A stretch of 60,684 nucleotides of DNA from an uncultured virus (IMG/VR IMGVR_UViG_3300009068_003844) (IMGVR_UViG_3300009068_003844), one strand, 5' to 3'. Positions 6,267-44,575 are shown, counted from the stretch's first letter. Numbers and translations: made by a program. The notes: generated by a model from the letters alone, not told the origin.

Positions 6267-6758
6267 ATGAAAAAATTCACAAATTGGCTAGAAAATAAAG
6301 AAAATAAACAACTAATACTTATGAGGGGAATATCAGGTTCCGGAAAAAGTACGGTTGCTAAAAAATTAGTTGGAAATGGCAAGATATTTTCCACCGATGA
6401 TTTCTTTATGCAGGATGGAAAATATAATTTTGATGTGACTAAAATAGGTCATTATCATAAACTAAATCAAGAAAGAACTGAAGAGGCCATGAAGAATGGT
6501 TTATCTCCAATAGTTGTTGATAATACTATGACTCAAGCATGGGAAGGTTCAGAGTATGTCAGGCTTGCCGATAAGTACGGTTATTCGGTTAGAATAGAAG
6601 AACTTCCAATTCCGGATATTGATGAATTAATGAAACGTCAAGAAAGTAGAAAAAATATAAACAAAGCTCTTCCAAGAGAAGTTGTTGAAAGAATGATTGG
6701 TAAATTTCAACCAGGATTAACAGTAGATGATATTAGAAAAGGAAAAAAGAGTTCCTAG
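6267..6758 (+). CDS. P-loop polynucleotide-kinase-like protein (AAA_33/N4BP2-like) with capsid-targeting-like N-terminus
   Basis: Walker A GISGSGKST, 'STDDFF', 'VVDNT'; N-terminus MKKFTNWLENKE. Confidence 0.8.
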   Translation: MKKFTNWLENKENKQLILMRGISGSGKSTVAKKLVGNGKIFSTDDFFMQDGKYNFDVTKIGHYHKLNQERTEEAMKNGLSPIVVDNTMTQAWEGSEYVRLADKYGYSVRIEELPIPDIDELMKRQESRKNINKALPREVVERMIGKFQPGLTVDDIRKGKKSS

Positions 6759-7160
6759 AATCTTGAATTATAAAATAAAAGATATATAAAACATCTATTG
6801 CCAAATCTCTTCTAGTTGATATAATAACTTTTTATCAACTGGGAGGGTAAATGAAAAATAAAAAGCCAGGCCCTTATCACAAATTATTGGCAGTAAATAA
6901 CGGCATAGCCAGAGTTAAAAAACACTGTGGTTTTTGCGACCGAACTCACGTGGTAAACTTCCCATTAGATGATATTGGGATTGAAAGACGCATGAATACT
7001 TTTTGCAATGACTGCGAGAGAAACGTAGTCAAGATAAAGAAGAGACAAAATAGAGAAAAGGAAATGTAGACACTCCGTTTCCCTCCGGTACGGTTCTCTG
7101 GTGTTGCGATTAGCAATCGTTTAGGTTGCCGCAACACAAATCTCTACCGGAGGAATCGAA

Positions 7161-11771: not shown

Positions 11772-14086
11772 AAATGAAAGACGAGATTCACATTGAAGAA
11801 CAAGATCTGTATAGCGAATACGTTGCAATGTCGGAAATAATGTATTGTTATGAATTGGAAGAAATTAATAATAAATTAGCAGAAATTTATATAGAAGAAT
11901 ATCTTGACAAATAGTTTCCCTCCGGTACGGTCTAGGGGTGTTGAGAGAGAAGCCCCAGAGGAAACTATTTAATATGAACGACTTGATTGAAAAAGCCCTC
12001 GTTCGTTTCCCGAAAGCGAAAAGAATCGCCGTAGAGAACTTTACTATGGGCTATGAAAGTCTTAGTAGTGAGGCTCAATCTAATTTGGAGTTGGACGCTA
12101 GACTTTACGATTGGAATAAAGACACAATTAACGCCATTATTAGCATTTTATCTTCAAAGGAAATAGGGAGAGGCTGAAATGGATTCTAATAATTTCATGA
12201 GGATTTTTGACGATAGGAATGAGCATAAACTTAGCATTGTCGCCTGTGGAAATGGCTATGATCTTTGCGGCCCAAGCGGCAAGGTGGTTTACTGCGGGGT
12301 TGATCCAGAACTCGTTGAAGTTCTTGAAGATTATCTTATTGTTAGAGAATTCAATCTTATTGACGTATGACCATGAATATCTTCGATAAATATAGTGCAT
12401 ATGAATTAAGGCAAATATACGCAAGTCCCATTAGTGATTGGCCCGAACCATTTAAGAACTGGATTCACAAAGAAATAGCAGAATCACTTTTGGATTCTTG
12501 GCTTGAGAATGTTGATGACAATGAATATCGTGATCGTGTTCACGAAATTGTAGAGAATATGACATACGGTTATCCAGACAAAAATGGCAACGAAATGCTA
12601 GATTTGCCAATATAATGAGCACATACTTGCATTACCCATACTTGGCGGCTGGCACACCAGTAAAAGCCAACATAAATGGAGAGTGGCTAGTTGGTAAAAA
12701 ATTAGAAACTCCCAAAAAATTTGAAATGCTGGGTAGTTTTTCAGATAATAAAACTATCCTAGTTGAAATAGATGGAAAAGAACTAGCAGTAAACAAAGAT
12801 TTGGTGAAAGTTTTTGAACCTTTGATGGTTGATGACAATGGAAATAAACCTAAACTAGAAGAATTTAAAAAAGATTTTAAGATTCTTGTGATTAATCTAA
12901 GTGACCCAATCAACAAAATTAATATCGACTATAATAAAGCCGAAATTGGCAATGAATTCATCAGAATATATCCAATAATCCAAGAACACGAATACAGATA
13001 TGCTTTTCGAGAATATCCTTGTTGGGCTGTTGAGCAAGTTATTTTGGGAAAAAGAATAATAATTGCAACACCAATTGATACCATGATAGCAGTAAATTTA
13101 TTTATAGACCGGCTTAAGTTTATCAAGTCTCGTTGGTTATTTTAAATATAATAACATATATCACAGCGTGATGAATAAATAACTTTATGGAGAGCAAAAT
13201 CTAATATTTAAAATTTAAGGAGGAATATGTGGGAATGGAATCTCTATATTTTGTTGAAAAGAAATGAATCTTGGGAGATAGTTGAAAAAAATAGTGGCAT
13301 TGCCTCTGGTATTGCCTCTCTATCATTAGGTGCTATACTTGGTTTCTTACTGGCCTGCTTGGTGGGATATTATCTATGAGCGAGATACTAGCACCTAGAT
13401 TCCCTATGGTTGAAACCAATTCAATGGAATCTTATACAATCGAACAAATCAAAGATTCCCCGTATCTTTTGTGCAAATACTCGTTTCAAAAATCAAAAGG
13501 CAAATTGCCAAAAGATTTGCACGATGCAATGACATTACACGGTATGATTAATGCCAAAGATTGGTATGTTAGATTTTATTTTGACCGGATTCTATCCGGA
13601 GAAAATATTGATGATATTCTTCCCTGAGAAATCCAAATGTTAGTCAGCGAAATTAAATCCTGGGCGAAGAAGAATGGCTACATAGTCAAAACTGTAAAGG
13701 GTGTTGGCTATGAATGGAATAAAGAAGGCACAGATGAAAAGAACACCGATGATGACTTGAATGAAATGGCTCGCAAGATTTTCAATAAAATAACGGATAA
13801 CAAATTTATTGATTATCAAGAAGAACAGAAACTAAAGTGATGTTGTTTCCTTCCGGTACGGTTTCCTCAAAGGAGTCTGCTATGTTGTATCTACTTTTCA
13901 CTTTTTATCTTTGGACGATGGGTGTGGTTAATTTCGATAATAATACAGATGATGTAGAAAATATGATCGCTAGGGCCAGATGCCGACAAATATCAGTTGA
14001 CAACAACAACTGCGTCACCGTAAAATTCCTCAACAGGGAAGATGCAGAACTTTTCGCAAAAGACCTCAAACGCCTCACAAAGTAAC

Positions 14087-26190: not shown

Positions 26191-27318
26191 AGGTTTCTTC
26201 TTTTCTTTTTGGTACGGTCTCTTGTCATGGAAACTAGTAAAAACAGTATGCTTGCCAGTTTCGACCAGAAACTCGCTGAATACAAGACTCTCCTAGAGAA
26301 TCACGACTGGTATTACAGTTGGAGCGACGATAATAGGGTCTGGCGTAATGGTGAACAGAACCTCAAGCGTCTGAAAGAAATTGCAGAGTTTGGTGGTTTG
26401 GCTTACCAGATCCTGTTTAACGAGGAATACCAGAAGCATTTTAATGAGGGGTGTTTTAAGACTAGTTTTTCACACACTGGTAATCCCTCTTGTTCAACTC
26501 CTCCTTTTAAAGTCTAGAGTTTCCCTCTGGTACGCTTTTTGACCATGCAAAACATTAGTATCTCCTGCCGACTCTGCGGTGTGAAGAAACTTATTAGTGT
26601 TGATCCCTCCACATATGTGAAGTGGAGTATGGGACAAGGTTTTATTCAAGACTTGTTTCCCCATCTTAGTGCAGATGATCGGGAATTGATGATTAGTCAG
26701 ACTTGTGGAACCTGTTTCGACAACTTGTTTCCACCGGAGAATGATTACGATGAAGATTAATCCTCGTCCTGACTGGATTGAAACTGGCCTTAAAGTGCGT
26801 CCAGATTGTTATCATTATATTCGTAAAGTGAGTCTAGTCACCTCTACTGAAGGTAGCGGTTATTGGAGTGGTGTAGTTAAAGACTTTGTGAAGATAATCG
26901 AACTTGATTTGAACACTTACGAAGGACACGATGATTGTTTTGAATTAAGGGCGTATTTTTCCAAGAAAACTTGGAATGTTGAAAAGCATGGTTTGATTTA
27001 TACCGATAAACTTTGGCTGACTACCTTTAAGAAAAGTCTTATTGATTTAGGTTTCAGTAAAAAGGGACTCAACGCAGTAGACTATAGTGAACAGGGTATG
27101 CAGGGCGAGGATTATGTGAGTATGGATGTATCAGCACCAGGTGAACACGATCAAATTGAAGTTTTCATTAAAGATTACGAAAAAGTTCTTTATAGTGTCA
27201 AAGACAGGTTTTTAGGTAGTTTAAGAAAGAAGTAAGTTTCCTTTTGGTACGGTTGGTGGTTGTTCCCGATTCAACGTGAGTCTGGAAGAAAGGGTTGTTA
27301 AAGAGGGAGTTTAATACT

Positions 27319-27573
27319 ATGGGTCGTGCTAAGGGTCAGGCTGGTGTGTCGCTGGAGCGTTTCCTCACCTGTGTCATCGAGACGCAGCGGGCTGGCGGTA
27401 GTGTTGAAGATGTTGCGAACGAACTGGGCATTGTGGCCGGTTCGGTTTCGGTGCGTCTTTCGCAGTTGCGGAAGAAGCATGGTCTGAATATCCCCCGCTT
27501 TGAGGGTGGTGGTCGGACTAGCAACACCGCTGAACGGGCAGCGGCTATCCTTGCCTCGCTTGGGGTTGAGTGA
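27319..27573 (+). CDS. small HTH DNA-binding protein (paralog family)
   Basis: 'GGSVEDVANELGIVAGSVSVRLSQLRKKHG'; ATG at 27319 after GGGAG; GC-rich. Confidence 0.85.
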   Translation: MGRAKGQAGVSLERFLTCVIETQRAGGSVEDVANELGIVAGSVSVRLSQLRKKHGLNIPRFEGGGRTSNTAERAAAILASLGVE

Positions 27574-27586
27574 AGGATTTAATCTT

Positions 27587-27618
27587 CTCCCCTCCCCCTT
27601 TAATGTGGGGGAGGGGAG
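27587..27618 (+). terminator. GC-rich hairpin after the HTH gene
   Basis: CTCCCCTCCCCC/GGGGGAGGGGAG. Confidence 0.6.
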
Positions 27619-27674
27619 GGGTTGACGAAAAGTTTGTTTCTGGTACGGTAGTGTTTTGTTGTTGATTAAGTCGG

Positions 27675-27747
27675 GCGACCCTAGCTCAATTGGCAGAGCA
27701 CGAAACTTTTAATTTTGGGGTTCTGGGTTCGATTCCCAGGGGTCGCA
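27675..27747 (+). tRNA. tRNA-Lys(UUU)
   Basis: Acceptor GCGACCC/GGGTCGC, D stem GCTC/GAGC, loop CTTTTAA, T arm CTGGG-TTCGATT-CCCAG. Confidence 0.92.
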
Positions 27748-28320
27748 CTCTTTGTTTTTTCTCCAATATCCTCTTGGTGGTTTGGTTAGATTATATTTCT
27801 TTACCCATTTACCAACAGCTTTATCAGATACTCCATATTGTTTAGCAATTTGAATGGTTGGCATTTCCCATACAAGTTTTTTTAGTAATTCTTTTGTGGG
27901 CCATTCAACCTTCCTTGGTCTTTGTTTTTTTATTTTTTCTTTTCTAGGTTTTTGATTCTTTTTGTCAAACTCCCAATGACAATTGGGACAAAGAATTAAA
28001 ATATTAGACTGGTCATTCACCTCAGATATTAAAGTTTCTTCTGGGAATGAGTGGATTGGTTTAATGTGACAAACTTCAACGTGTTTATCGTATCCGCAAA
28101 ATTGACACTTTATATTCCTATATTGAACCCTGGCTCTGTTTCTGACAACATTAAATTTTGCACTTTGTCCATGCAGTGCTGATACCATCGCATCTTTGAT
28201 TGTTAGATATTTTATTTGACCATTATTGCAGCATTTGATACAATGTTTAGACAAGATTGTTTTGTGTTTACCACAGGAACATAAATCATATTGATTTGGG
28301 TATTTTGAAGCAGGATCCAT
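27709..28320 (-). CDS. free-standing HNH endonuclease with C-terminal HTH
   Basis: 'CQFCG..EVCHIKP..NILILCPNCH'; HTH 'IAKQYGVSDKAVGKW'; 3' end overlaps tRNA-Lys in antisense. Confidence 0.85.
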   Translation of the reverse strand: MDPASKYPNQYDLCSCGKHKTILSKHCIKCCNNGQIKYLTIKDAMVSALHGQSAKFNVVRNRARVQYRNIKCQFCGYDKHVEVCHIKPIHSFPEETLISEVNDQSNILILCPNCHWEFDKKNQKPRKEKIKKQRPRKVEWPTKELLKKLVWEMPTIQIAKQYGVSDKAVGKWVKKYNLTKPPRGYWRKNKECDPWESNPEPQN

Positions 28321-29498
28321 ATCCTAAAATAGTAAAAATTTTCTTTCCCTCTGGTACGGTGAGTGAGCATGGAAACAATCCAAAAAGAAAAACTCCTCAC
28401 CAGTTTTGTTGAAGTTAAGAAAATTTATCTTCATGCTCGTCGATGGTTTCAACGCTCTTATGGTAATACCTACCATACCGTTGAAATTTGGGTAAATGAC
28501 CATTTGGTTCATAAGATTCCTTTCACTTATGGGTATGGGGATCAATGGTCATACAATGCCGGTAAGTGGCTTGTTGATAATGGTTATGGACGTTTTAGTG
28601 GATACTATCCCATCAGCAGATATTGCCGAGAAAGTGGAATAGAGTATAATCATACTGTTGAGGATGTTAAAAGAAAGAGGGATCTTTAATGAGTGATCAA
28701 CATTCTAATTGGTGGCACAAATTTGTTAGTGGTATGCCTCCACTTAACAAGATTAGCAAGGACTTTGAAACTTCGACACTTACATTTAGTGAAAAAGTCG
28801 CAGATTTACGATCTAGAATCAAAGAGTTCAAAGAACAAGTTGAATCAGAGACTAAGGCTTTTTATAAGAAGAAGAAAAAAATTCTTCGTCGTGACCCTGC
28901 CCGCCCCTGGTAAAAAGGAAATTTAATTATGACTACCTTGACTAAAATTGAAATGCCAAACGTAGAAGTTCTTCGTAAGACTGGTTATAAGGTTCGTGTT
29001 TATCACGGACGGGTTTATCTCCGTTGTGTTACTCCGGATCATGCTAACTCTCCAGAAATTATTCACGAATATATGAGCAAGCGTGAATATGAACAATTTA
29101 ACAACTTAGTTCAAAGTGTGAACTGGGAACTCAGTTGCAAGGGCGGCTTTACTATTGTGGAGATTACTACTCCTGATGGTCGTGATCTGAGGGGTAAGTT
29201 TAATGTTCCAGCAGGCGGAATGTTTAATCGTAAACTGGGTGTGAAGATTGCTACTAATCGGGCTCTTAAGAGTGGTGTTTAAATGTATTGACCAATATCC
29301 TCTATTAGATTATAATAGAGGTATTATGGAAAAATATACTTGGATTGTTTGGAAGAACAACCGAATAGCAGGGTATGTATCTGCTTATAGCGAATGGGAC
29401 GCAAATAGATTCGCCAGAATGAAGTTTGGTTGTGAAATCTGGGTAGAGAGAACGGTAGAATCTGGTACGGTGTGAGGGTGTCACACGGAGAACTCTAG

Positions 29499-29729
29499 AT
29501 GCTAGACGATATTGACTTTAGTGATTTCATTCTTGGTGGTGAAACTGAAGCCACTCAGAAGAAGAATAAGAGAATCCCCCTTGACGTTTTCCTCAAGAGT
29601 ATTGTAGAAGCCGTTAAGAATGGCGGAAACAGTATTAGTGTTGCAAATGAATTGGGGATCTCTCCTCAAGCAGTAAGGCAGCGTTGTCATAAACTCCGGG
29701 CTAAGGGAGCCCCTGTGCCACAATGGTGA
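29499..29729 (+). CDS. small HTH protein (paralog family)
   Basis: 'PLDVFLKSIVEAVKNGGNSISVANELGISPQAVRQRCHKLR'; motif at 29464. Confidence 0.8.
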   Translation: MLDDIDFSDFILGGETEATQKKNKRIPLDVFLKSIVEAVKNGGNSISVANELGISPQAVRQRCHKLRAKGAPVPQW

Positions 29730-30009
29730 ATCTTATGGATAAGGAACAGGCCATACTCTTTTGCAAGATCGCCAGTAAACTTTCTTATTCAAAGAGTTTA
29801 ACTCAAGATAATATTCTCAAGAATAGTTTAGACGATATTCTCGAGATGATTAGTTTGTATTGTGATACTGCTCCTGATAATCTACTTCGTAATAATATCG
29901 ACGTTGTTATGGAGCATAAGAATTGGCAGATACAAAAGGGTTTGGTACAATAAAAAACCCCAAGAGGTTAGTCTTGGGGTTAACACCGAATGTGTTTTTA
30001 GTTAAATTA

Positions 30010-30465
30010 TTAGTTACTTAGTCTTAAGAAACCATTTCTTACTACAACGTATTGCATGGTGTGTGGATCGCCGTCACCTGAGTGAATAACGAAACCAGCT
30101 AAACCATTGTTCTTCCAGTTATCATAGTTATCGAACTCATCGTCAATACCATACTTGTTATAACGAGTTCCATTGACCTTAACGTATTTTTCAACGTGAG
30201 GGCCGTGGTTTGGTCTTTGACCATTCTCGCCTTGTAAAGCACCTTCTTCGTCGCATTGTGTTAGTATAACACTATACATATCTGGATTTAAAGGTAATAC
30301 TTCTTCTAAATCAACTGTGATCCACCAATTGTTAGTTTGTCCGTCTGATCCTACAGTTCCTGTTCTGGCAATGCCAGCAGCGACAATGTGAGGGCCAGCG
30401 GCTGTTAAACAAACTTGGTTAGGGGCCATTCCTAAACCTGTGCCTTGTGATGTTGTTGCACTCAT
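30010..30465 (-). CDS. hypothetical protein
   Basis: AAGGAG RBS, 151 aa; terminator-like hairpin near 29955-29982. Confidence 0.65.
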   Translation of the reverse strand: MSATTSQGTGLGMAPNQVCLTAAGPHIVAAGIARTGTVGSDGQTNNWWITVDLEEVLPLNPDMYSVILTQCDEEGALQGENGQRPNHGPHVEKYVKVNGTRYNKYGIDDEFDNYDNWKNNGLAGFVIHSGDGDPHTMQYVVVRNGFLRLSN

Positions 30466-30534
30466 AATAAAACTCCTTTTAAAAAAACATGATTAACGTC
30501 ATTGTTAATCTATAGGTATATACTATTCTAAACT

Positions 30535-31002
30535 TTATTTATATCTATTTTTCCTTCCTTTGCCTCTGTTTCTTCCTTTAAAAGTTGCAGTTATTGAATC
30601 GCAATTATTACATATAATTCTCATGTTAGATAAATCATGATTTTCAGCATTACCATCTATATGATCACAAACTAAGGGAATTCTGACTCCTAGCCATTCC
30701 GATAATCCGCACATTATACACTTATGTCCATGTGTTTGTATTAAGTATTTTTTTATTAATTTACGAGCATGATATTCACAAAACGTTTTATATTGTCCAC
30801 TTTCTATTTTTTCTTTTAAACTGGCGGAGGTTATTTCATCAAATTTTTTGCCTTTGTTCCAAGGTATGCAACCTTTTTGAACACCTGCTTTTGGTGATTT
30901 TATTCTTTTGACTCTTTTGGGATTATTTTGACAACATAATTCATGAGATGCAAGAGAGCCTTTATTGTTTATAGTTCTATTGCAATATTTACAGCTATTC
31001 AT
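30535..31002 (-). CDS. free-standing HNH endonuclease
   Basis: 'CIMCG..LVCDHIDGNAENHDLSNMRIICNNCDS'; AAGGAG RBS before MNSCK. Confidence 0.85.
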   Translation of the reverse strand: MNSCKYCNRTINNKGSLASHELCCQNNPKRVKRIKSPKAGVQKGCIPWNKGKKFDEITSASLKEKIESGQYKTFCEYHARKLIKKYLIQTHGHKCIMCGLSEWLGVRIPLVCDHIDGNAENHDLSNMRIICNNCDSITATFKGRNRGKGRKNRYK

Positions 31003-32668
31003 ATATACTCCTTTTGATTTTTGGTTATATGTATTATATATACCAATCAACGCATTAAATCATTCTCTCAACCACATAGTTTCTGGTACGGTTGGAGTTT
31101 CCCGACCTCCCTCTTGAGGAAGAAGATGCGTAAGATTGAACAAGAGATGATTGATAGCATCTTGAACAAGAAGAATCATTCTTGTGGCAACACTAGGGTT
31201 GAAGTTGCCGATGATGTGATTCTTGTCTTTTTGTTTAATAACCTGATTGCTAAAATTACCAACAAGACTGTAGGGATTAATAATCAGGGATACACTACAT
31301 ATGTTACCAAGAGCCGGCTTAATTGTATCCTTCGTAAATTTTGTGAAGGTAGAAATATTTACCAGAAAGATTTCAACTGGTATATTAGTGGCGAGCCCAT
31401 ATTAAACAATAGTTCAGAATACCCCAGTAATGTTTGGAACTACTTTCCAAATGTGGTACTGTTGAAAAGTTTTGAATGAAACAATACATTGTAATCAATA
31501 CAAATAAACCATATGTTGATGGTGAGTATCCTTCCGGTGGTTTTGAAATATATTTACTGAGTGCCTTCCCCGGGTCTGAAAAAGAGTTGTATATTGACTC
31601 TAGTCCTGATTGGGAAAGTGTTTCAAATTTTGTGAAGATGGTTAGTAGAAATTCTACTATTCAGGTTGAATACAGGTCTGCTAAATAATAGTAATGTTTT
31701 ACGTTCACATTTACTATGAACAAGGGCAAATCAAATACGACCCATATGAAAATCCAGAAAAATTACATAATTTTTTGGATAATCTTCCTTATGATGAAAA
31801 TTTAATTGTCATGGAAACAGTTAAGGAAGAAACGGCCCGATAGTTTTTGGTACGGTAGAGTAGTAACGAAAGGATAGAAAAAATGGAACATTATCGTTAT
31901 TATTGCACTGTTAAACTCAACAACATTGAGGACAGGCTCAATATTTATAACTGCGATCCCGGTGATGCCACTATGTGGTACGGCGGAATCTGTGAAGTTA
32001 TGGAAATCTTTGGAGGTACGGTTAGTAACCTTATGGGTGAACCTGTAACTCAGGATCAAATCCTAGAGGAATTTAGGAAGGAAGAAAGTGATGCTAAACT
32101 TAGTTTCTGCCTAGCGACTGGCATGACCCGCCGTGATGCTAGTTCTGTGACGGTTAGTTTCAAACCTTCTGTGAATGAAATTGTTTCTTCTGCGAACCCT
32201 GTAGACGAAAATAATAACAATAGTCCACTAAGGTTTGCAGAATAATATGAGTATGCTACACCCTAAAGTAAAACTTTTCTTATCAAAAGGTTTCGGAAGA
32301 AACTTTATAATCGGTAATCATGTCCGTGGATTTAGGGTTACGGTTAGAGATGGCGATTATGGCGAAGTAACTTTTAGTACAGGCAATGATGTTGAAACTT
32401 TAATGCTTGATTGCATTAAACAGTTTGACAATAGTGTGAAGATTAAAGAAGCCGAAAAGGTTAAGAGACTAGCGAGAAGGAAGAAGGAAATACAGAAGGA
32501 ACTTGAAGAAGTTTCAACTGAGTTAACGAATATAACTCTGAACTCATTCCAGAAATAAAAAGAAATAAACAGAGAAACTTGTCTTTTGGTACGGTTGATG
32601 GACGTTGCGACGGTGAGCCACTTCGGCAAACGGCAACAAAGGGTTGAATAACGCAGGAGATTACTACT

Positions 32669-32923
32669 ATGGGTCGTCAAGTTGGACAGAAGGGTGTCGC
32701 TCTGGAGAAGTTCCTGACCACGGTGGTCGAGACGCAGCGGGCCGGCGGTTCGGTGCAGGACGTTGCCGATGCTCTGGGCATCACGGCCGGTTCGGTGTCG
32801 GTGCGTCTCTCGCAACTGCGGAAGAAGCACGGTGTGAACGTCCCCCGGTTCGAGGGGTCGGGCCGCACCAGCAACACCGCAGAGCGGGCGGCTGAGATTC
32901 TCGCCAGCCTTGGGGTTGGTTGA
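32669..32923 (+). CDS. small HTH DNA-binding protein (paralog family)
   Basis: Near-identical to the 27319 and 37832 proteins; very GC-rich; motif at 32588. Confidence 0.85.
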   Translation: MGRQVGQKGVALEKFLTTVVETQRAGGSVQDVADALGITAGSVSVRLSQLRKKHGVNVPRFEGSGRTSNTAERAAEILASLGVG

Positions 32924-32955
32924 AGTTAAAGGCTGATATAATAATCGGCCATACG

Positions 32956-32990
32956 AACCCCCTCCCGTAAAACGGAGGGGGTTTATTTTT
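32956..32990 (+). terminator. intrinsic terminator
   Basis: AACCCCCTCC/GGAGGGGGTT plus T-rich tail. Confidence 0.75.
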
Positions 32991-33034
32991 TATTTGTTAT
33001 AGACTATATTGTTTTTGGTACGGTAAACAACCAT

Positions 33035-33106
33035 GCCCCGTTCGTATAGAAGTTAGTATACTGGGCTTTCATCTCAGGGACGCCGGAGCGTTACCGGCAC
33101 GGGGTA
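33035..33106 (+). tRNA. tRNA-Glu(UUC) with non-canonical T loop
   Basis: Acceptor GCCCCGT/ACGGGGT, anticodon stem CTGGG/CTCAG, loop CTTTCAT, T arm GCCGG-AGCGTTA-CCGGC. Confidence 0.85.
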
Positions 33107-33644
33107 CTTTTAAACAACATGAAACGATCAAATAACTATTCTGTGAAAGAAGAAGGCCGCTGGTTTGTGGTTTATAAGGATCACAAGCCAGTTACCGATA
33201 AAGGTGATATTCACCAAAAGCCATTTGTAGTTAAATGGCAGAATAAAGAATCAGCCGAGAAGTATATAAAAGAATTAAACAAAAACTTTGACGGTGAAAC
33301 AATCGCCAGTCTGTATTCGGTACGGTAGAAAAACATGAACACATGGAAAAGCAGTCATAACTTCCCTCCAGAAAAGGATCAGGAAGTTTATTACTTCGGC
33401 CCTAATATTGGGATCGGTATTGGCAAATACCATTATGAAGAACGTGAAATAAAGGGGACTAAACTTTGTCCTCATATCTTTGTGAATAATAAGTTCGGAG
33501 TAGTAGACGCTTGTGATGCTCCATTCTGGATGCCTTATGATAATGAAAAGGCTAAAGGTTGGTGTCCAATCATTCCAAAAGAATATACTAAGGGCATATA
33601 CGAGAACGATTGATTTTGGTACGGTGTGGAGTCAACGAGATACA

Positions 33645-33779
33645 AACTGTGTGTCTGCCGACAGTAGAGAGATAGCCCAGCAAACAGCGTCTGCATCTAA
33701 TGGGTGTATGGGGTTGCCGAACTAGGCTATGGTGAGGCTTATGCTGCTCTCTATCCGGGTTGGATTCCCGGCACAGATT
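33645..33779 (+). ncRNA. tRNA-like RNA of about 135 nt with a large structured insert replacing the anticodon arm
   Basis: CTGTG/CACAG acceptor-like stem, T arm CCGGG-TTGGATT-CCCGG, TAGAGAG/CTCTCTA and ATAGCC/GGCTAT helices. Confidence 0.55.
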
Positions 33780-33863
33780 CAATATAAATGCGTCAGGGGT
33801 CGGATAGAAACCTAAATAAGGTTGAATAGTGCGTGATACCGGACACTATTTGTGAAACTATCG

Positions 33864-33942
33864 TGGAGCGTAACTCAACTGGATAGAGTTCCACTTGCTT
33901 TAAAAGCAAGAGGAGTTATGGGTTCAAATCCCATCGTTCCAT
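33864..33942 (+). tRNA. atypical tRNA with UAA anticodon (Leu-reading), extended anticodon stem, no long variable arm
   Basis: Acceptor TGGAGCG/CGTTCCA, D stem ACTC/GAGT, TCC-A-CTTGC[TTTAAAA]GCAAG-A-GGA, T arm ATGGG-TTCAAAT-CCCAT. Confidence 0.7.
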
Positions 33943-34937
33943 AAGTCGATCCATTCTCAGCCGGTATATCAATACAAAAGGAAAATAATGAGAATAACCA
34001 AGAAACAAATAGCAGAGGCTCTTGGTATTGACTGGCCTGTATCGTCAAAGGATACTGCTATTGCACTACGAAATATCGAGACAATCCTTGATAATGTCGC
34101 TGAAAATCTTGAAAATGATTTTGAATCTGCGGCTTTGGGTGACGCTTCTAATCTAATCCAAATGATCAGGGAATGTCTAAAGGATAGTTGATTTTGGTAC
34201 GGTTGTGTGAAAGACAATAAAGGAAGATAACATGAAAACTGTATTTGTTGTTTTTGACCCAGTTCATCCATACACTAACTTCAAGGTTTATCAAAACATT
34301 GAAAATGCTGCGAATGATCTGAGGAACAATGGTTTTACGATTGACTTCTTGCATGAGGAGTTAGACCTCTTAGCCTCTGCCATATTCCTTGCACCCAACT
34401 GGAATCGGGGGCAGGGCTTAGTATACAAAAACAAAAATACCCCTGAACAAAGATTTTTGTATTCTCGCTTGGTAGAAGATTGTGAAGAAAACAAAAACTA
34501 CCTCGCAGATAAAAATGAAGATTTGGCTTGTTAAAGATAGTTGATTTTGGTACGGTTGTGGGTTGTTCCGAAACAAACATTCTTCAAAGGATTAGAAAAT
34601 GTTTTACCTTCAGATTGCCAGTTTAGTTGTTGGATTACTTGTTGCTTGTCTCCAGTGTGGTAAGGAAGCCGCCCCTGTTGTTCATACGATTGTGGAGGCA
34701 AGGAAGTATCATCGTGTTGAACCCCAATACAATGTCTATAGGGGCTATGATAATAACTACCGGTATTGGAGTGATTCTACCGGAACATATTGGTGCAGGG
34801 TCAATCAGCAAGGCTCTATGGAGATTGCTGTGGTAAATCAGTCCTCACAATCTCAGCAGCAGATTATGATTTGTCAGACGCCCAACAACACGATTCGTTG
34901 ATTCTGGTACGGTTCCAACTTACTCAAGGAGAATAAA

Positions 34938-35111
34938 ATGGAAAACTGGACTGTTATCGACGATACTAAACTCCGTCACGTTTGGCGTTGTGCAGATTGT
35001 GATTGTGTTACTCATGTTACTCCGTGGTGGTATGAAGATGCCGGAACCCCGGTATGCGAAAAGTGCGGTGAAGATATGAAGTATCTTAGCACAGAGTTCA
35101 ATAACATCTAG
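34938..35111 (+). CDS. small Zn-ribbon-like protein (below the ORF-track cutoff)
   Basis: MENWTVIDD..CADC..CEKC; AAGGAG RBS; TAG stop overlaps the next motif. Confidence 0.65.
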   Translation: MENWTVIDDTKLRHVWRCADCDCVTHVTPWWYEDAGTPVCEKCGEDMKYLSTEFNNI

Positions 35112-36685
35112 TACGGTTCCACCTTACCCAAGGAGCAAAAGATGAACACTGAACTGGAACAAATCGCACGGGCTATCATCGGCATTAGCGTTGCCGATCT
35201 TACTAACGCCGAAAGAATCATCTATAAGATTCTGGAGAAGCGTAACATCGTTTGTGAACGGGGTCATTATGTTGAACTTACTAATGATCCAGAACTCAAT
35301 GCCCACTATGATGAAATGGAAATATATAGTCAGAGTCAAGAGTGGCCCGAAGATTATCCTTTTTAGTACGGTGAATAAATATGAAAATCATTATTGAAGT
35401 GAACATGGACAACGCTAGTTTTAATGATAACCCCAACGAACTGGGTGAGATTCTAACTCAAATCCCCTCTAACATTAAAGCAGGGGATGATGGGGTTCTC
35501 AAAGACTCTAACGGCAATAAGGTGGGATTCTGGGACGCATTTGAAAGTTTCTAGTACAGGTATCCTATAAGCGGTGGAAGTCAAAAACGCCACTGGACGT
35601 TAGACCAGTATGGATACTTCTAAGGAAAAGAAAATGTATCGTGCTTGTTTTATCTTTTTTGTGTTCATTCTACCGATTCTGAATATTGTATTTTGTCTTG
35701 GATTTCTCGCAGGAAAGTTTTCACAATGAAAAACTGGATTTGCTACAATCTGTTTGGTGAACATCCAGATGATGTTGACACGTTTGGTATGGTTAGTGGT
35801 CTAGGCATTTTGGCTTTCTTGATTTTCTGGACTAGTTATCTTTTTATCTATATTCCTCTTTATTTCTGTCGCTAAAGGATTGAACTAATGGATACCATTG
35901 ATACTCTCAAGATGCTCAGGATTTTTGTGGATACTGCTCCCCTGAATAGTCAGGGTATGGTTGAGCCTGATACTCTCAACTTCATTAGCATGAGGCTGGG
36001 TAGTATTGTTGAAACTCTGGAGCGAGAAAAAACTCTCTCTGATGAACTCCGTCAGATTTTGGTACGGTAAAGATTTGTCCTAACATCACTAAAGAGTAAT
36101 AAAGATGACAACAACAGACATTTTCATCATCGGTATGTATCTGACTAGTCTTGTTGGTATGGTTGTGATCGTAGCGAGTTTCTTTTGGGCGATTGATACT
36201 TTGGTCAATGCACTTTACAAGCCAACCTCTAAGATTAAAACCATGATTGCTGAGGATGGTACTGAATGGCAGGTGGGATATATTGACGAGTTCCCCGGCT
36301 ATAGAGAACTTTTCTAGTACGATCAATCATCAAGGAGAAACACAATGAACGACTTCTACGATGGATTCTATGAAGATTGGTGGGGGACTAAGAACGTGAA
36401 GGGTCACGACGCCCACAAGGGATACAATAAACACGATCTTGCCTCAAGGAAAAACTATCGGGACAAGGTATTAGAATACCTTAGACTGGAGTTTTGTGAT
36501 ATTGGGGATTGGTGGCATCTTCCCGTTAAGGGCGTTAATATCAATAGGGTATTGTTAATCAACCTTATTAACGACTGCCAGAATGATAATATGAAGATCA
36601 ACAACGCCAGCGGTGTTGTCTATGAATGGCTGAAGGGCCGGAATCTGATTTAGTACGGTGAATAGGCAACAGAGGAGAAATAACA

Positions 36686-37006
36686 ATGCAAGAACAAGTC
36701 GAACTTTGGCTCGCTGCTTTGACTGAGAAGTCTAACACCACTGGGGCTGAGACTAAATACATTCTTGAACCGGGGCGAAAGTATACTAGAGTGGTTCGTC
36801 AAGAGCGTTGGCTGGATAGTAACGGGGAACCGCTGTGGGGTGCTAACAAAAGTGTCCATGCCTTTATAGACGAAAATGGGGATATTTATAAGGCAGCAAG
36901 TTGGAAGGCTCCGGCCAAAAATGGAGCAAGATTTAATGTTGTGAACGATATTCAAAGGTTGGTCGAAGTTTGTGATCCCTATGGTAGTTATCTCTACAAG
37001 AGGTAA
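36686..37006 (+). CDS. conserved phage hypothetical protein
   Basis: 'GRKYTRVV..SVHAFID..GDIYKAASWKAPAK' resembles a family common in T4-like myophages. Confidence 0.7.
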   Translation: MQEQVELWLAALTEKSNTTGAETKYILEPGRKYTRVVRQERWLDSNGEPLWGANKSVHAFIDENGDIYKAASWKAPAKNGARFNVVNDIQRLVEVCDPYGSYLYKR

Positions 37007-37831
37007 GATCAGGTAAGATCAGGTACAGTTATCAACCAGAGGAGAATAACAATGCTTTGGCAAAAGAAAAAGAATCGGTATAATACAAAGCCGTATTACG
37101 AAGCAAAAGAGGGAGATATTGTGTATCAACTCCGATATGTTCCCTTCAAGGGTTGGCAAGCATCAAGGCAGGAAGCCAATGTTTGGACGATCCCGGGAAT
37201 AAAGAAGGACATGGCGGAGGCTATGGGCTGGTGTGAGAGTGACTTTTCGGTACGGTAGACTATCGTTCCAATAAAAAAGGAGACGATTGATGCCAGATGA
37301 ACTTGCAAAACCTATTGATGCAATGCGGGAATACGCACTTCATGTTGGGGCCGAACATCCAGAACGTCAATGGATTTTAACTGATTATGATGTTTGGATG
37401 CCAAACCCGTTTTTCAACGGTGTTCCCGGCCCTCACCCCGAAGATTAGTTTTTAGTACGGAGCAGAGATATGGAAAACAGTTTTTACGGTTTCTGGAGAG
37501 AAAAAATGCCAGACGATACAAAAACCAGTAGTGGTCTTGACCGATACACTCTTGGTTTCCTTGAAGATTATTACGCAAGGGAGACTGTGAAGCCGGTTTC
37601 AAGCCTTATCGAAGCCGCTACACAGTTTGAAAAGGAGCCAGAGTTTAAGAACTATCTGGCTATGAGGGATCTTTTTAGGGAGATTGAAGCAAATATGACA
37701 CGGAGAGACGGTTTCCGTTGTCATAATCGGTAAAGGATAAGATTCGGTACGGTTAGGGTTTGTTCCGACAGCAAGCCAATGAGGCAAGCGGGAACCAAAG
37801 GGTTGGTAACTATAAGCAGGAGATGATTACT

Positions 37832-38092
37832 ATGGGTCGCCAAGTTGGTCAGAAGGGTGTTGATCTTGAGACGTTTCTCACCACGGTTATCGAAGTGCAG
37901 CGGGCTGGTGGCAGCGTCGAGGACGTTGCAAGCAAGTTGGGCATCGTTCCGGGTTCGGTGTCGGTGCGTCTGAGCCAGTTGCGGAAGAAGCACGGGCTGA
38001 ATATCCCGAAGTTTGAGGGTGGTGGTCGCACCAGCAATACCAAGGAGCGTGCGACGGAGATTCTCGCCAGCCTTGGCGTCGAGATGCTCTGA
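37832..38092 (+). CDS. small HTH DNA-binding protein (paralog family)
   Basis: MGRQVGQKGVDLETFL..; motif at 37746; hairpin CTCACCCCCCGGCC/GGCCGGGGGGTGAG at 38104-38139 follows. Confidence 0.85.
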   Translation: MGRQVGQKGVDLETFLTTVIEVQRAGGSVEDVASKLGIVPGSVSVRLSQLRKKHGLNIPKFEGGGRTSNTKERATEILASLGVEML

Positions 38093-41000
38093 AGTTAGTC
38101 ACACTCACCCCCCGGCCAAACAATAGGCCGGGGGGTGAGGCCCACGGGGTTTCCCATGGGTACGGTTTCTGGTTCCTGGTCGAAGCCGGGAATCTGACTG
38201 GTTGTGAATACCTGAAGAGTCTTCAAATGATGTGCTTCCTTGGATTGTGTAGCGGTATTATTTCTATTATCATTGATAATAACAACCCACGCTAAACAAT
38301 CTTCGACCGTCCCGTTTGGGGATTCACTAGGTTCAATCCTAGCGGTCGATTTTGGTACGGTAAAGACTTGTGAGCCTTACTTTTACTTTTAATAACTAGG
38401 ATTAAAAATGAGAAGCACAATCGAGGATCATGAGTTTGCTGTTGAACAGTGGAAGAACGACAATGCTTGCTGGCTTGATGGGGAGCCCGCTAAAATCGTG
38501 GGCTTCCTTGAGAAGTTTCCTACTGTGGCTCAGTTGAACGGCCCAAAGAGTTTTCAGTGGAGTTGGGCTGCCGTTAACAGGATTATGAGCAAAGACCGAC
38601 AGTTCAAATCATAAAGATTTGGTACGGTAAAACTTCAAAGGAGAATCCAAATGTGGCTTGCAATGGTCATTCGTGACAGTGTTCCTGAGAGTGTTACCAG
38701 TTTCGACAACTACTATGATGCAGTGGGTTGTGCGGACGATTGGATTATTAAGTTTGACCCGTCAGTAACTCATTCAACCCTCCCCCGATATTCTAGGGGT
38801 GAGAGTTACCATAAGGATGGTTTGAGGGTAGATATTCTAGAAATCAACTAGAATCCGGTACGGTCGGGAGTTGTTACCCGAAACGAAAGGAAATCATGGC
38901 GTTAGAAACCACTATTGATGATCTGGTTCAGCGGTTCGGAGAAGAGCCGTTCCCATGCACCTTCATCCATCGGTTCGACCCCGAAAGGGTGGCGGCATTC
39001 GACCGTGAACGGGCGGTACACTGGCTCATCGGCAAGGTCAATGGACCGAAGATCATGTTATCACTCCTGCCGGATCGTCTTGTATTTGAGGAGTTGATTG
39101 ATTCATTGGATTCCTACGGATGGAATCTGCTGGTCGAGGGCGGCATGAACTATCGAATCAAGAGGCATGACTAGAATCCGGTACGGGTTAGTGTTGTTCC
39201 CTCCACTTCTCAGGAGTTAGAGATGAAAGTTACTAAGACTCGTCGCCTGAAGTTGCTCAAGGACATGGAAGCCTCAAAGGAGATTCACAATCGGGGTCAC
39301 TACACTGTCAACGAGCGGGTTCTGGTCAATGCGATTGTCAACATCATCCAGAATCAGCGTGAAGTTGAAGTTCCGGTCGAGTTCGATCCGGTAATCAACC
39401 CGCTCAACGATGAAGTGCTGAGTGTCATCACGGGTTGATGATCCCTACGGGGATAGTATCTAGTACGGGTTATAGTTGTAACCAACACCACTAAGGAATC
39501 AGACAATGCCGTGGCAAATCGTTGATGAACCCAAGCCAATCAAGTTCTATCCTTTTGAGACAGAAAACGGCACAGAGTTTCGCCGTGTTGGTGGCTTGAT
39601 GGTAAAGGGAACCATCCGACACTCCAAGGCGAGCGAGGATCAAGTCTGGCGGGTTGTTTATACTAATCGGGCCGGAAGAGGCACTTTTAGTATTACGGCT
39701 CCAGATCGCACCGTAGAGCGTCAGAATCACAAACTGGACTTTGTGAAAGTAAAGGCTAAGGCTACGGTCTACAGAGAGGGTAATCGTAAGGGCGGAATGA
39801 CCCCAACCGCATTTCAGCGGGAACTAGCAGAAATGTGTGGGGGCAACTTTGCCGGTAGTTTCTATGGTCAAATGGTCAATGCCGTGAAAGTGGCACTAGG
39901 GGCAGAATAAAGACTCTCCCCCGATCATATTGGTGATTCCACGCTAAGCGTAGAGTTTTCATTATGATCGGGGGATTTTTCTTTTTAGTTTTTGGTACGT
40001 AGATTGGGTGTGAACCATTAACCACGGAGCCAATACCATGCTTACTGAATGGGAAGTTTACTGGCGAGTCGGCGTTGTCGGGTATGTATGGGCTGCTAAC
40101 AAGAGAGAAGCACTGTATCTTGCAGTTAACCTATACGGTGAACTGGCTAGTGTTAAAAGCAACAACCCTAGTTAAATCTAGGGTTAAACTTTATGTTTTT
40201 GGTACGGTAAAAAACCAAAAGGAGAAAAGTGATGACCCCAGAGCAAAAAAACATCATCGACCGGGCTCTTAGCACTCTTATTTGGGAGACTAAGAAGAAT
40301 ATTCTGGATACCCAAAATAGTGGGGAGTATGACTCCGCAGTAAAGAACTTCCTCATTGAACAGAGGAAGTTGCTGGAGGAAGCAACCCTGCTCCGTAAGG
40401 AACTCAGGGAAGATAATCTTTGGAATCCAGTACGGTAAACTCTTGTCTTAACCCTAGCCCAAAGGAAAAAACAATGTTCAAGAACATCAAGTGGTTCGAT
40501 GGTTTGTCTTGGGTCAGTGGTTATATTCTGGAGATCATGTTCAAGGACGGTAAAAAGGGTTATATCAAGAATACTGACCGCAAAAAGATTAGTCATCTTT
40601 TTGAAACTTTGTGGAACGACCATAACATCATCGGTTTGACCGTCTACAATATTGATGAAAAGGTTGAGGACGCTAAGTATCGTTATCTTGGTTGAAATGA
40701 ATCAGGTACGGTAAACTCTTGTTCCATCAACAAAGAGGACTAAAAATGACTACCGTTATCACTGGCCTGAATGTTGAAAAGTATCGTCTGCTCAGTCTCA
40801 AGAGTGCATTGAAGTTGGAGACTAAGGGACTCAAGCACTCAAGGTTCAACGTCAGCCAGATTGTGAAAAGAATCCTTCAGGAAAAGGGAATCAAGCCTAA
40901 GAATAATAAGATTGAACTGCTTGTCCAGTTTGAATCCTACTTGGAGGGGGTCATCTGAGGCTTTCGGTACGGTAAACTCTTGCCGATAACTCTGGGAGTT

Positions 41001-41367
41001 TCATCATGAAGAAGTATGAAGTAACCTGTTGTGACACGGGTAAAACAATAGTCTTGACTCATAAAGAGGCGGTCGAAAAGTTCGGCAAGGTTGAGTTCAA
41101 AGAGATTCTGAAAGGATACCTTCCCCATCTGGTCGCTGTTGAAGTATTCAGTACGGTGGATGGTTGTGAACCCAACACTCAAAGGAGAGTCTAATGGATG
41201 ACTTTGATATGATGCAAGAAACAGTCCTCTGGCCTTGGATTGACGATCCAAGTTATGACAATGAAGATGCAGAGGATGAATGTAACTATGATCCAACGGA
41301 AGAAGAAAACTAGTACGGTAGATTATCGTTGATTGAACCATAACCATAACCATAAGGAACCAAAACC

Positions 41368-41613
41368 ATGAAGCGTCAGACTGTTAGCGTTGAAACGTTC
41401 GTCAATGTCATCATGCGGCATCTCAACAATGGTGGGAACCAAACCAGTGTTGCTAAGGAGTTGGGAATCACTCCGGCAGCGGTTTGCCTCCGTCTCAAGT
41501 ATCTCCGTCAGAACGGTGCTTGTGTTCCCAAGACTAAGAAAGAGTTGAAGTCTCGCCGGAACAAGGCAAGTATCGTGGCCGCTGCCAACAAGGAAATGAA
41601 GGGTTGGAAGTGA
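41368..41613 (+). CDS. small HTH protein (paralog family)
   Basis: 'VSVETFVNVIMRHLNNGGNQTSVAKELGITPAAVCLRLKYLR'; motif at 41312; GC-rich hairpin follows. Confidence 0.8.
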   Translation: MKRQTVSVETFVNVIMRHLNNGGNQTSVAKELGITPAAVCLRLKYLRQNGACVPKTKKELKSRRNKASIVAAANKEMKGWK

Positions 41614-42101
41614 AAAGGGGAGAGGGGGGAGAAACAAAAAACTCCCCCCTCTCCTTCTGGTACGGTTAATGTTTGTAACCTTAACCAAAAGGAAGTTTCA
41701 AATGCGTAAGACTCGTTGTGCTGGCAAGGCGGTTGGAATGAGTTATTGCAAGCATCTTCGCAAGTTTGGCAAGCGGGTCGCTAACAAGGCAACCCGCCGG
41801 GAAAAGTTCTAATCTGGTACGGTTGAGTGTAAGGAACTTCAACCTCTGGAGAAAACAGATGACTCCTGTTGAGATTGCCATTAAGGCCAAAGACTTCTTG
41901 AAGGGTAAAAAGTATCCTTCAGAGAGAATGATCCAAGACGCATTAGAAGCCAGCATGGTTTCTTGTGGTATTGATCCCGAATCGGGTGCGGGGATGTTTC
42001 TTTATGGTCTGTCCTTGAAGTGTCTAATCAAGATGGCAGGGTGATAGTATCTGGTACGATTACTGAGTGTAAGGAACCTTCAACCCTCTGGAGTTTAGAA
42101 G

Positions 42102-42575
42102 ATGAACGACATTCAAATGCTGGCTCTGAGCAAAGTGAAGTTCGACCGGGATAACATTCCGGTTGGGGATCATACGGTTGATTTCACGGTTCGGGTCAGT
42201 GGAACGGTCAAGGTTGGCGACGATTATGAAAGGGACGCTACCACTAGCATCCCTTGGCTGGAATCGGTGGCTCTGTGGCAGGAAACCGCTAGTGCTGCTT
42301 GGGATAGCCTTATCAGTCGCATGGATAAGGGAGAGACTATCACCCGTAGTGATCTGGTTGCCATGCGTAAGACTGGCCCACTTGCCACTGGGGTGCTCGT
42401 AGATTGCATTAGAACGGCGTTGGTCAAGGGGGAGTCTGCGGTAGGGTCTATCCTTGATCGTGTCACAGAAGTCAAAGAGGGCGTCGAGAACGTGAAGCGG
42501 GAGTTGGTGAAACAACTCCCCAAGCAAAGTTGCAAGGGGGCAACCAAGGTAGTCTGCGATTGGCAGATAGTCTAG
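42102..42575 (+). CDS. hypothetical protein, last gene of the motif array
   Basis: GGAG RBS, motif variant at 42053, hairpin AAGGGGGGAG/CTCCCCCCTT follows. Confidence 0.65.
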   Translation: MNDIQMLALSKVKFDRDNIPVGDHTVDFTVRVSGTVKVGDDYERDATTSIPWLESVALWQETASAAWDSLISRMDKGETITRSDLVAMRKTGPLATGVLVDCIRTALVKGESAVGSILDRVTEVKEGVENVKRELVKQLPKQSCKGATKVVCDWQIV

Positions 42576-43128
42576 GTTGTCTAAGGGGGGAGGGGCTAAA
42601 CTCTCCCCCCTTATTACTGGCGGGTAGGATTCTGGTACGGATTCGTGGTATGTGAGAAAGAATCCGGTACGGTTCTTTGAAAAATGAAAACAGTTTTCGG
42701 TACGGTATATTTTTACAAAGTTAAAAACTGAAAAACTAAAACTGAAAAACCCTGGGGGTAGGGTTTGGTACGGGTACCGGTTCAACGCCATTACGCCCTT
42801 TTTCTTTTCCCTTTATATTTCTTTTTCCCAACCCATGAACTTTTTAATGAACTTTAAAGGGGGTTTCTATATTTTTTCAAAGTATATGAGAGTTAACTTT
42901 AAACCCGCCCCACTAAACCTATAATTTTCTAAAAACGGTTTCTAAAAAAATCCGGCGGGTATAATTTTTGAGATACTGTAGGGTTTTTTACAATTCCCCA
43001 TCAGGAGAAGGCTGGAATACATTATAGTCATATGTTAACTCTTCCCCAGCTTTCATTTAATTTTGTTTTAACGTATAGCATATGTTTCTCCAGTATCTAA
43101 TATCTATGATAATTTACTCTCATATGTT

Positions 43129-44563: not shown

Positions 44564-44575
44564 TAGATTTAATGG

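Follow-up and report, generated by a model that had tools for sequence, protein, structure and literature searches.

The window examined here, a stretch of 60,684 nt from an uncultured virus (IMGVR_UViG_3300009068_003844), corresponds to bases 128446-189129, read on the minus strand, in a 251,265-bp IMG/VR virus record (G000), which is estimated to be about 50% complete. It carries an array of small genes and transfer RNA (tRNA) genes headed by a short word, RGTACGGT, whose copies are probably phage-specific promoters. PHROGs and Pfam matches, which include rIIA, rIIB, a T4-type portal, the major head protein, baseplate wedge proteins, the large terminase, a primase and several HNH endonucleases, assign the record to a very large myovirus that is a distant kin of T4-type phages. 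The nearest deposited phage by capsid protein is LR756511.1 (75% identity), a 595-kb metagenomic record without annotation. The closest relative is G001, an incomplete genome of 323 kb (323267 nt) with a capsid protein 97% identical, which is collinear with G000 at about 90-98% nucleotide identity and is interrupted by many indels. The right ends of both records lie within about 3 kb of the same place (window-relative position 185940 aligns to G001 position 323260 of 323267), which may reflect a repeat or the actual end of the genome. The DNA runs that contain the array come from freshwater, lake or aquatic metagenomes, and among them no RNA run covering 33000-42900 is on record.

All 41 copies of RGTACGGT in the window are on the + strand, as the original prediction had claimed, and 100 dinucleotide shuffles of the window gave a mean of 0.97 copies and a maximum of 4. 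The both-strand count that had been proposed together with this shuffled background gave, for the whole 251-kb record, 59 on the same strand as the window and 2 on the opposite one. These 59 copies span from 58 kb upstream of the window to window position 42699, and the window strand has none in the 146 kb downstream, which holds structural and replication genes, so the abrupt stop of the array that had been noticed is real. The dense array between 26211 and 42773 is equally real, with 35 exact copies instead of about 45, or about 41 when six one-mismatch copies at gene boundaries (26529, 37022, 39180, 42053, 42634 and 42767) are added. It is the close-packed end of a sparser series spanning about 100 kb and not a self-contained block of 16.5 kb; the copies at 2169, 7087, 11924 and 13855, which had been taken as outliers, are genuine members of that sparser series.

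The element is longer than its core. With the first G of the core numbered as index 0, the logo of the 59 copies reads GTT..S..TYY-GGTACGGT-N6-TYRT, that is, G(-10) T T. S.. T Y Y followed by [G/A]GTACGGT, six unconserved bases and T14 Y15 R16 T17. T occupies index -1 in 29/59 copies and G occupies index 0 in 51/59, while CGG, the middle bases of TACGGT, is invariant in 59/59. The logo has no conservation at the -35 position. A TTGACA-like hexamer (at least 5/6 matches) is present 16-18 nt upstream of TACGGT in 6/59 copies, compared with 1.8% of random places, so that the hexamers originally reported at 16-nt spacing are real, and none is found at these spacers in the other 53/59.

Genes were called with a simple open reading frame (ORF) caller weighted by Shine-Dalgarno (SD) sites. 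Among the 35 exact copies of the dense interval, 23 have an SD-led ORF start within 120 nt, four have an ATG ORF exactly 8 nt past the core, two precede tRNAs, and six have no SD-led ORF, index-16 ATG or tRNA. One of these six is inside an ORF (32015), two precede non-coding stretches (33618 and 38159), one precedes an ORF with a weak SD (36061) and two are at the array end (42666 and 42699). Over the whole record, an SD-led start lies 15-90 nt downstream of 34/59 copies, compared with 13.5% of 2000 random positions. The copies at 6348, 6574 and 32015 are inside ORFs. Copies of the A-variant (AGTACGGT) often overlap the TAG stop of the preceding ORF (35110, 35365, 36652 and 41312), a sign of how closely the units adjoin. 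Strong hairpins, with a fold of -15 kcal/mol or lower within 50 nt upstream, precede 9/59 copies and 10/400 controls, and in the relatives 8/70 copies of G001, 18/103 of G002 and 15/101 of G003. A terminator-promoter composite is thus present in a minority of units only, and terminator-like sites within the array are few. The features are as follows.

26211..42774 (+): dense end of the array, 35 exact RGTACGGT and 6 one-mismatch copies.
2169..2176 (+): GGTACGGT copy; ORF 2232-2924 begins 55 nt on, weak SD.
6348..6355 (+): AGTACGGT within ORF 6267-6758, probably non-working.
6574..6581 (+): AGTACGGT within ORF 6267-6758, probably non-working.
7087..7094 (+): copy; TAGACA stands 16 nt ahead of its TACGGT; SD-led ORF 7161-7493.
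11924..11931 (+): copy; TTGACA stands 16 nt ahead of its TACGGT; SD-led ORF 11974-12177.
13855..13862 (+): copy; SD-led ORF 13882-14085 with the shortest leader seen, start 19 nt past the core.
26211..26218 (+): copy; leaderless ORF 26227-26517, whose ATG is at index 16.
26529..26536 (+): one-mismatch GGTACGCT, ATG 8 nt past it; the G001 counterpart is an exact GGTACGGT.
27246..27253 (+): copy; SD-led ORF 27319-27573.
27642..27649 (+): copy with TTGACG 16 nt upstream, then tRNA-Lys 27675-27748; G001 homology ends just past the copy.
27709..28320 (-): HNH endonuclease gene breaking the array; missing from G001 and strains in the sequencing runs X10 and X20.
28353..28360 (+): copy bounding the strain-variable HNH insertion on its right; leaderless ORF 28369-28689.
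29464..29471 (+): copy; SD-led ORF 29499-29729.
30535..31050 (-): HNH endonuclease gene breaking the array; missing from G001 and strains in X10, X13 and X20.
31085..31092 (+): copy; SD-led ORF 31126-31479; directly past two minus-strand genes missing in other strains.
31849..31856 (+): copy; SD-led ORF 31883-32245.
32015..32022 (+): copy within ORF 31883-32245.
32588..32595 (+): copy; SD-led ORF 32669-32923, leader of 73 nt.
32955..32984 (+): strongest terminator-like hairpin of the array, 11 pairs and then a T run, 33 nt before the copy at 33017.
33017..33024 (+): copy; tRNA-Glu 33035-33107 from index 18, 2 nt past the predicted start.
33319..33326 (+): copy; leaderless ORF 33335-33613.
33618..33625 (+): copy, then 237 nt without a called ORF, then tRNA-Leu 33863-33943.
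34196..34203 (+): copy; SD-led ORF 34232-34534; cassette missing from G001.
34549..34556 (+): copy; SD-led ORF 34599-34901; G001 homology restarts 8 nt upstream.
34906..34913 (+): copy; SD-led ORF 34938-35111.
35110..35117 (+): AGTACGGT, its A falling on the second base of the TAG that ends ORF 34938-35111; SD-led ORF 35142-35366.
35365..35372 (+): AGTACGGT over the TAG stop of ORF 35142-35366; leaderless ORF 35381-35554.
36061..36068 (+): copy; ORF 36105-36317 begins 36 nt on, weak SD.
36652..36659 (+): AGTACGGT over the TAG stop of ORF 36345-36653; SD-led ORF 36686-37006.
37022..37029 (+): one-mismatch GGTACAGT, then ORF 37052-37258.
37249..37256 (+): copy, then a 195-nt SD-led gene; in G001 the matching copy is joined directly to a leaderless ATG.
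37746..37753 (+): copy; SD-led ORF 37832-38092, leader of 78 nt.
38159..38166 (+): copy, then a 179-nt structured non-coding stretch, 38175-38353.
38354..38361 (+): copy; cassette 38360-38617 (ORF 38408-38614) missing from G001 and strains in X13 and X20.
38621..38628 (+): copy at the right edge of cassette 38360-38617; SD-led ORF 38651-38851.
38857..38864 (+): copy; SD-led ORF 38896-39174.
39180..39187 (+): one-mismatch GGTACGGG, then ORF 39223-39438.
40201..40208 (+): copy; SD-led ORF 40229-40438; in G001, X13 and X20 a deletion stops 11 nt upstream.
40429..40436 (+): AGTACGGT; SD-led ORF 40474-40695.
40705..40712 (+): copy; SD-led ORF 40746-40958.
40966..40973 (+): copy; 339 extra nt in G001 inserted right at it.
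41150..41157 (+): AGTACGGT; SD-led ORF 41194-41313.
41312..41319 (+): AGTACGGT over the TAG stop of ORF 41194-41313; SD-led ORF 41368-41613.
41659..41666 (+): copy directly behind a G/C-rich hairpin; SD-led ORF 41702-41812.
41816..41823 (+): copy; 216 extra nt in G001, flanked by a 37-nt repeat containing the motif.
42053..42060 (+): one-mismatch GGTACGAT, then ORF 42102-42575.
42634..42774 (+): array end, with GGTACGGA (42634), exact copies at 42666 and 42699, and GGTACGGG (42767); no ORF within the next 400 nt.

The distances between the core and the genes point to a single position for the RNA 5' end. Leaderless starts, which are ATG ORFs of at least 45 aa without an SD, are found exactly at index 16 in 5/59 copies here and in 6/70 copies in G001, and the same class of ORFs at indices 8-15 has one start here and none in G001. 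No ORF starts at indices 19-26 in either genome, and SD-led starts are found only from index 27, as would be expected of a 5' end at about 16 if an SD takes up at least about 11 nt. Index 16 is a conserved purine behind a conserved pyrimidine, and the pyrimidine-purine step is the usual -1/+1 step of initiation. The first base of tRNA-Glu, which had been placed within about 10 nt downstream of the motif, is at index 18 and so 2 nt past this purine. Leaderless ATGs, the pyrimidine-purine step and tRNA ends all fit an RNA that would begin at index 16, the 9th nt after the core, close to the 6-8 nt after TACGGT first suggested.

Some units of the array have features of their own. The stretch 38175-38353 (+) has 179 nt, no ORF and a fold of -54.6 kcal/mol; its 3' end forms a tRNA-like acceptor and T-arm minihelix, which has perfect 7-bp acceptor pairing and a GGTTCAATCC loop, and ARAGORN called no normal tRNA in it. 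The tRNA-Glu(UUC) at 33035-33107 was called by ARAGORN and was not reported by the Rfam tRNA model in a search of the whole window (E<=1). No Rfam family was found at or after the copies; elsewhere only tRNAs and a group I intron were found. This intron is complete (44600-44792, +; 68.6 bits, E 2.5e-15), begins 36 nt after tRNA-Thr 44492-44564 and adjoins a minus-strand HNH/HTH gene (44825-45508), which is homing-endonuclease-like. Together with this gene, minus-strand HNH genes are found within the array at 27709-28320 and 30535-31050, and the absence of these two elsewhere is as expected of mobile homing genes. The small ORFs 27319-27573, 32669-32923 and 37832-38092 (+) are paralogous and have a common coding word, GGTTCGGT; past their promoter copies they have similar leaders of 65-78 nt with ...AAAGGGTTG..., which may be a common leader RNA element.

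Copies of the motif coincide with the edges of strain differences. Of the indels of at least 50 nt between G000 and G001 in the motif-bearing span, 12/40 have an edge within 30 nt of a copy, while randomisation gave 4.0 +/- 1.9 with a maximum of 11 (2000 trials). When the copies are anchored on G001, both flanks are kept in 34/59, only the upstream flank in 7, only the downstream flank in 9 and neither in 7, with 2 between thresholds, so homology breaks on one flank at 16/59 copies. Junction overlaps of 37, 17, 10 and 4 nt include the motif, and this repeat common to the joints favours crossover within copies. In contigs from four other runs, 38350-38618 (with 14 nt at the joint that fit either side) and 39980-40190 are missing, and 27700-28354, 33023-33119 and 42611-42666 are skipped and replaced; contigs from other runs also lack the two minus-strand HNH genes. 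Recombination junctions, which the original prediction had offered as an alternative to promoters, are rather a second property of the same sites.

The word itself is confined to a narrow lineage. G001 has 70 forward and 2 reverse copies of RGTACGGT, and relatives at 75-79% capsid identity have no excess of the GGTACGGT word, nor do fragments G004-G009, which may simply lack the region (G006-G009 being uninformative). A scan of IMG/VR for two copies 220-250 nt apart gave, among the matches listed (at least 116 stretches), single scattered hits that are evidently chance, and a literature search for GGTACGGT gave only primers and aptamers among the matches listed. A scan of 8-mers for strand asymmetry found that the relatives have words of their own. 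That of G002 is TGATACCAACTAG, with 98 forward and 0 reverse copies of ATACCAACTA, which are densest at 313-359 kb and end abruptly; G012 has the same word, with 24 forward and 0 reverse copies. The word of G003, (A/T)TA(G/C)CT-TAGTTGTAC-CAA, has 101 copies (TAGTTGTACC 84 forward, 3 reverse), and that of G011, TAGCTGTAC (CTTAGCTGTACC), has 111. These last two are one base apart, and the difference is fixed in essentially every copy of each genome, about 100 copies in each. All four words have a common (A/G)TAC core.

Two of these words repeat the register seen in the window. An ATG ORF begins exactly at index 19 in 19/101 copies in G003 and 25/111 in G011, and index 19 is in both a conserved purine behind a pyrimidine (Y18 R19 in G003). 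The tRNA-Pro, tRNA-Met and tRNA-Glu of G003 each begin 2 nt past this position. Many G003 copies also have a conserved initial transcribed sequence, CAATTAGGTTGTGATT (index 9-24), and a second start-codon peak at index 46 (9 copies), which suggests that they have a common 5' leader.

The protein that reads the element was also sought. Beta and beta' RNA polymerase families were not found in G000-G003 or LR756511.1, in a search that detected 14/14 control genomes. No T7-type polymerase was found in these five either, and this search detected no control genome, so its silence says little. Sigma-70-family ORFs are present in G002, G003 and LR756511.1, three in each. With the three G002 sigma ORFs as queries, tblastn gave no hit in G000 and G001 at E<=1, and the search for related loci gave 2 loci with one sigma protein and 5 with a 3-sequence alignment, among which no new record had an excess of RGTACGGT.

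One sigma with regions 2 and 4 is common to the phage family. The orthologs of this protein in G002 and G003 have 32% identity, where the capsid proteins have 79%; those of G002 and G012, which have the same word, have 81%, and those of G003 and G011, whose words are one base apart, have 56%. This pattern of identities is consistent with a sigma factor co-evolving with its promoters. Two of the G002 sigma ORFs have region 2 only, and for phiEco32 gp36 the authors tie an absent region 4 to the absence of a -35 element (PMC8948821). A G003 sigma of 160 aa with regions 2 and 4 (L148:11771-12280) stands behind a near-consensus TTGACT-17-TATACT; as a speculation, it could be an early gene of a cascade begun by the host enzyme. 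Downstream of 43 kb, among structural and replication genes on both strands, ATATATT is present in 18/164 upstream regions where 3.5 are expected, and the TATATAT-type words that precede structural-half genes probably mark a late class of promoter distinct from the array element.

Taken together, the copies are probably phage-specific promoters that start RNA at the index-16 purine, are read by a phage-specified sigma and act also as crossover points. The original claim of one non-canonical promoter per gene is supported in this form by the register with start codons and tRNAs and by the logo of the element, whereas the early host-takeover timing first proposed is conjectural. In this model, in which start, reader and timing are inferred, each copy would direct RNA synthesis from the conserved purine, with its core at -16 to -9 and with no general -35 element. 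Most transcripts would have a leader of 10-80 nt with an SD site, a minority would begin directly at the AUG, and in some the first base would lie 2 nt ahead of a tRNA. Transcripts would probably overlap, as few units have terminators. The enzyme would most likely be the host RNA polymerase core with a phage-specified sigma-family factor, whose specificity would shift between lineages. Since the same 20-40 bp are found at every gene boundary, the copies would double as crossover points where small genes are gained, lost and swapped between strains.

Several points weigh against this model. In neither the G000 record nor G001, both incomplete, was a sigma or polymerase gene found, and the search for such a gene elsewhere on the contig, proposed with the original prediction, ended without one on a record that is about 50% complete. 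The reader protein in this lineage is a guess resting on relatives, and the match between sigma identities and words also tracks overall relatedness, so it is neither independent evidence nor proof. Every 5' end is placed from sequence, and a start at index 16 puts TACGGT at -14 to -9, two positions upstream of the canonical -10 hexamer. G002 has no sharp leaderless peak, its 7 short-leader starts being spread over index 10-19, and 9/41 window copies have no qualifying downstream feature, 3 of these being inside ORFs. As to turnover, the null for indel edges was uniform over the whole motif-bearing span, and one-flank breaks are mostly a property of the dense array (13/35 dense and 3/24 sparse copies). 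Nearly every boundary in the dense array has a copy, so that boundary and motif are inseparable there as the cause.

Among other explanations, the one that survives best, although unlikely, is that the host primary sigma factor reads the copies as extended -10 promoters (TG-n-TAnnnT) and that no phage factor is needed. The core agrees with this, since Y-G-G-TACGGT can be read as TGnTAnnnT with the T and G frequencies given above for indices -1 and 0, and the -35-like hexamers of the six copies suggest a -10 geometry of TACGGT in those copies. The invariant CGG is however not demanded by a housekeeping sigma, 53/59 copies have no -35, and the start would be at the 9th nt, where extended -10 promoters have variable middle bases and a start 7 +/- 1 nt past the hexamer. 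Relatives with 77-79% capsid identity have unrelated words, the one-base change between G003 and G011 is concerted over about 100 copies in each, which points to a factor evolving with each phage, and relatives do encode sigma factors. Because the core is invariant and the words are replaced wholesale in relatives, the extended -10 reading by host sigma-70, as first put forward, is unlikely to be the whole story.

It is improbable that the motif acts in RNA, where an endoribonuclease would recognise it, cleave long early transcripts 8 nt past it and so create the 5' ends with leaderless AUGs and near-mature tRNAs. Positional evidence defines an RNA 5' end and not its origin, and the few terminators in the array make long polycistronic precursors plausible. 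The conserved pyrimidine-purine at the 5' end is nevertheless typical of initiation, -35-like hexamers are more frequent than by chance at the spacing of a promoter, and copies recur right after minus-strand insertions (28353 and 31085) and strong hairpins (33017 and 41659), where a new start is needed. To our knowledge there is no nuclease of such specificity.

It is just as improbable that the reader is a phage-encoded RNA polymerase, too divergent to be recognised, in place of a sigma. Single-subunit and virion-borne phage polymerases have long, near-invariant and lineage-specific promoters, as this element is (about 18-28 bp), many of the large ORFs on the record match no family, and the T7-type search, silent in its controls, hardly speaks against it. 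In two near-complete relatives and LR756511.1 no beta, beta' or T7-type family was found and sigmas were, and the unconserved stretch between core and start is more like a sigma-type discriminator than a T7-type promoter.

That the copies serve recombination, nicking or protein binding and play no part in RNA synthesis is very improbable. Their match to indel edges and the strand-specificity of T5 nicks, which are likewise on one strand, agree with it, but it explains neither why ATGs and tRNA 5' ends keep to a single index in each of four genomes nor the gap in starts at index 19-26 nor the absence of the motif from the structural-gene half. T5-like nick sites in particular, which had been named as an alternative, have nothing in their favour, and they leave the single-nucleotide register of start codons and tRNA ends unexplained. 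Other candidates were rejected on geometry. For sigma-54 (GG-N10-GC) the spacing is 4 nt too long; with an extracytoplasmic-function (ECF)-type -35 (GGAAC-like) and a -10 16-17 nt downstream, or with an activator box and a downstream -10, the start would fall after the leaderless ATGs; and for a translational enhancer the distance to SD-led starts is too variable, from 19 to 78 nt.

This is not a new kind of system, since promoters specific to a phage and gene cassettes bounded by promoters are both known. The promoter-early-stem-loop (PeSL) elements of T4-type phages recur dozens of times as regulatory motifs in hyperplastic regions, just ahead of small genes whose function is unknown. Each combines a stem-loop terminator with a promoter that matches the Escherichia coli sigma-70 consensus in its -35 and -10 and has AT-rich DNA upstream, and the cassettes form encapsidated mini-circles (Arbiol et al. 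2010, PMC2839356; Comeau et al. 2014, PMC4122927). The array is similar, with 35 copies in 16.5 kb of ORFs of 30-120 aa, most of which have no family match. In both, little space separates the stop codon, the motif, the SD and the start codon, and indels or replacements between close relatives are edged by motifs. The array differs in having no general -35 and a core, GGTACGGT, that departs from the sigma-70 consensus, and in having a strong upstream hairpin in only 9/59 copies and not a stem-loop in each cassette. The PeSL analogy first drawn for the array thus holds for behaviour, in that copies bound strain indels, and does not extend to the sigma-70 consensus and the obligatory stem-loop.

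The promoters of phiEco32 gp36 have a single conserved element (tAATGTAtA) and no -35, and they start RNA 6-8 bp downstream; each genome has 6-8 of them, of middle or late class, ahead of structural genes. Phage 7-11, which is related to phiEco32 and has a divergent sigma, has a different consensus (PMC8948821). One conserved element without a -35, a start close downstream, which in the array would be the predicted one, and a consensus that shifts between relatives are common to both systems. Here, in contrast, each genome has 59-111 copies, and these head tiny accessory genes and tRNAs; the start would be at the 9th nt past the core, and no sigma was found in this lineage. T4 late promoters (TATAAATA, read by gp55) also have an invariant 8-bp word in the -10 region without a -35, and in T7, T3 and SP6 promoters small base changes switch specificity between related phages, so the array shares with these an invariant 8-bp word without a -35 and small changes that distinguish related phages. 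It differs from T4 late promoters in heading non-structural genes, the structural half being preceded by TATATAT-type words, and from the T7 type in that no T7-type polymerase was found, in a search without control detection. In Thermus phage phiYS40, transcripts are leaderless and promoters sit at such a distance that the A of the start codon is the first base transcribed, as would be the case here for the leaderless minority; that phage differs in group, host and promoter sequence, and here only 8-23% of copies are leaderless. By these analogies, the array is in behaviour a counterpart of T4-type PeSL cassettes, and its mechanism most resembles that of single-element phage-sigma promoters.

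Transcription in very large uncultivated phages is almost unstudied, and here sequence alone yields a precise promoter model with element, start nucleotide and targets. The four lineage-specific words raise the questions of how about 100 promoters could be rewired at once, which sigma reads them and what role they have in the turnover of accessory genes. A wider proposal can be made tentatively: the members of a family of uncultivated freshwater megaphages (about 370-600 kb) might each have 60-110 genes on private, orthogonal promoter words, read by a fast-evolving sigma or an unrecognised polymerase, with concerted turnover of the words, copies that serve in crossover and up to a quarter of them leaderless. 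Matched sigma and promoter pairs could serve as orthogonal expression parts. If the proposal is true, these phages would hold a natural series of orthogonal sigma/promoter pairs and would exemplify genome-wide, concerted promoter turnover.

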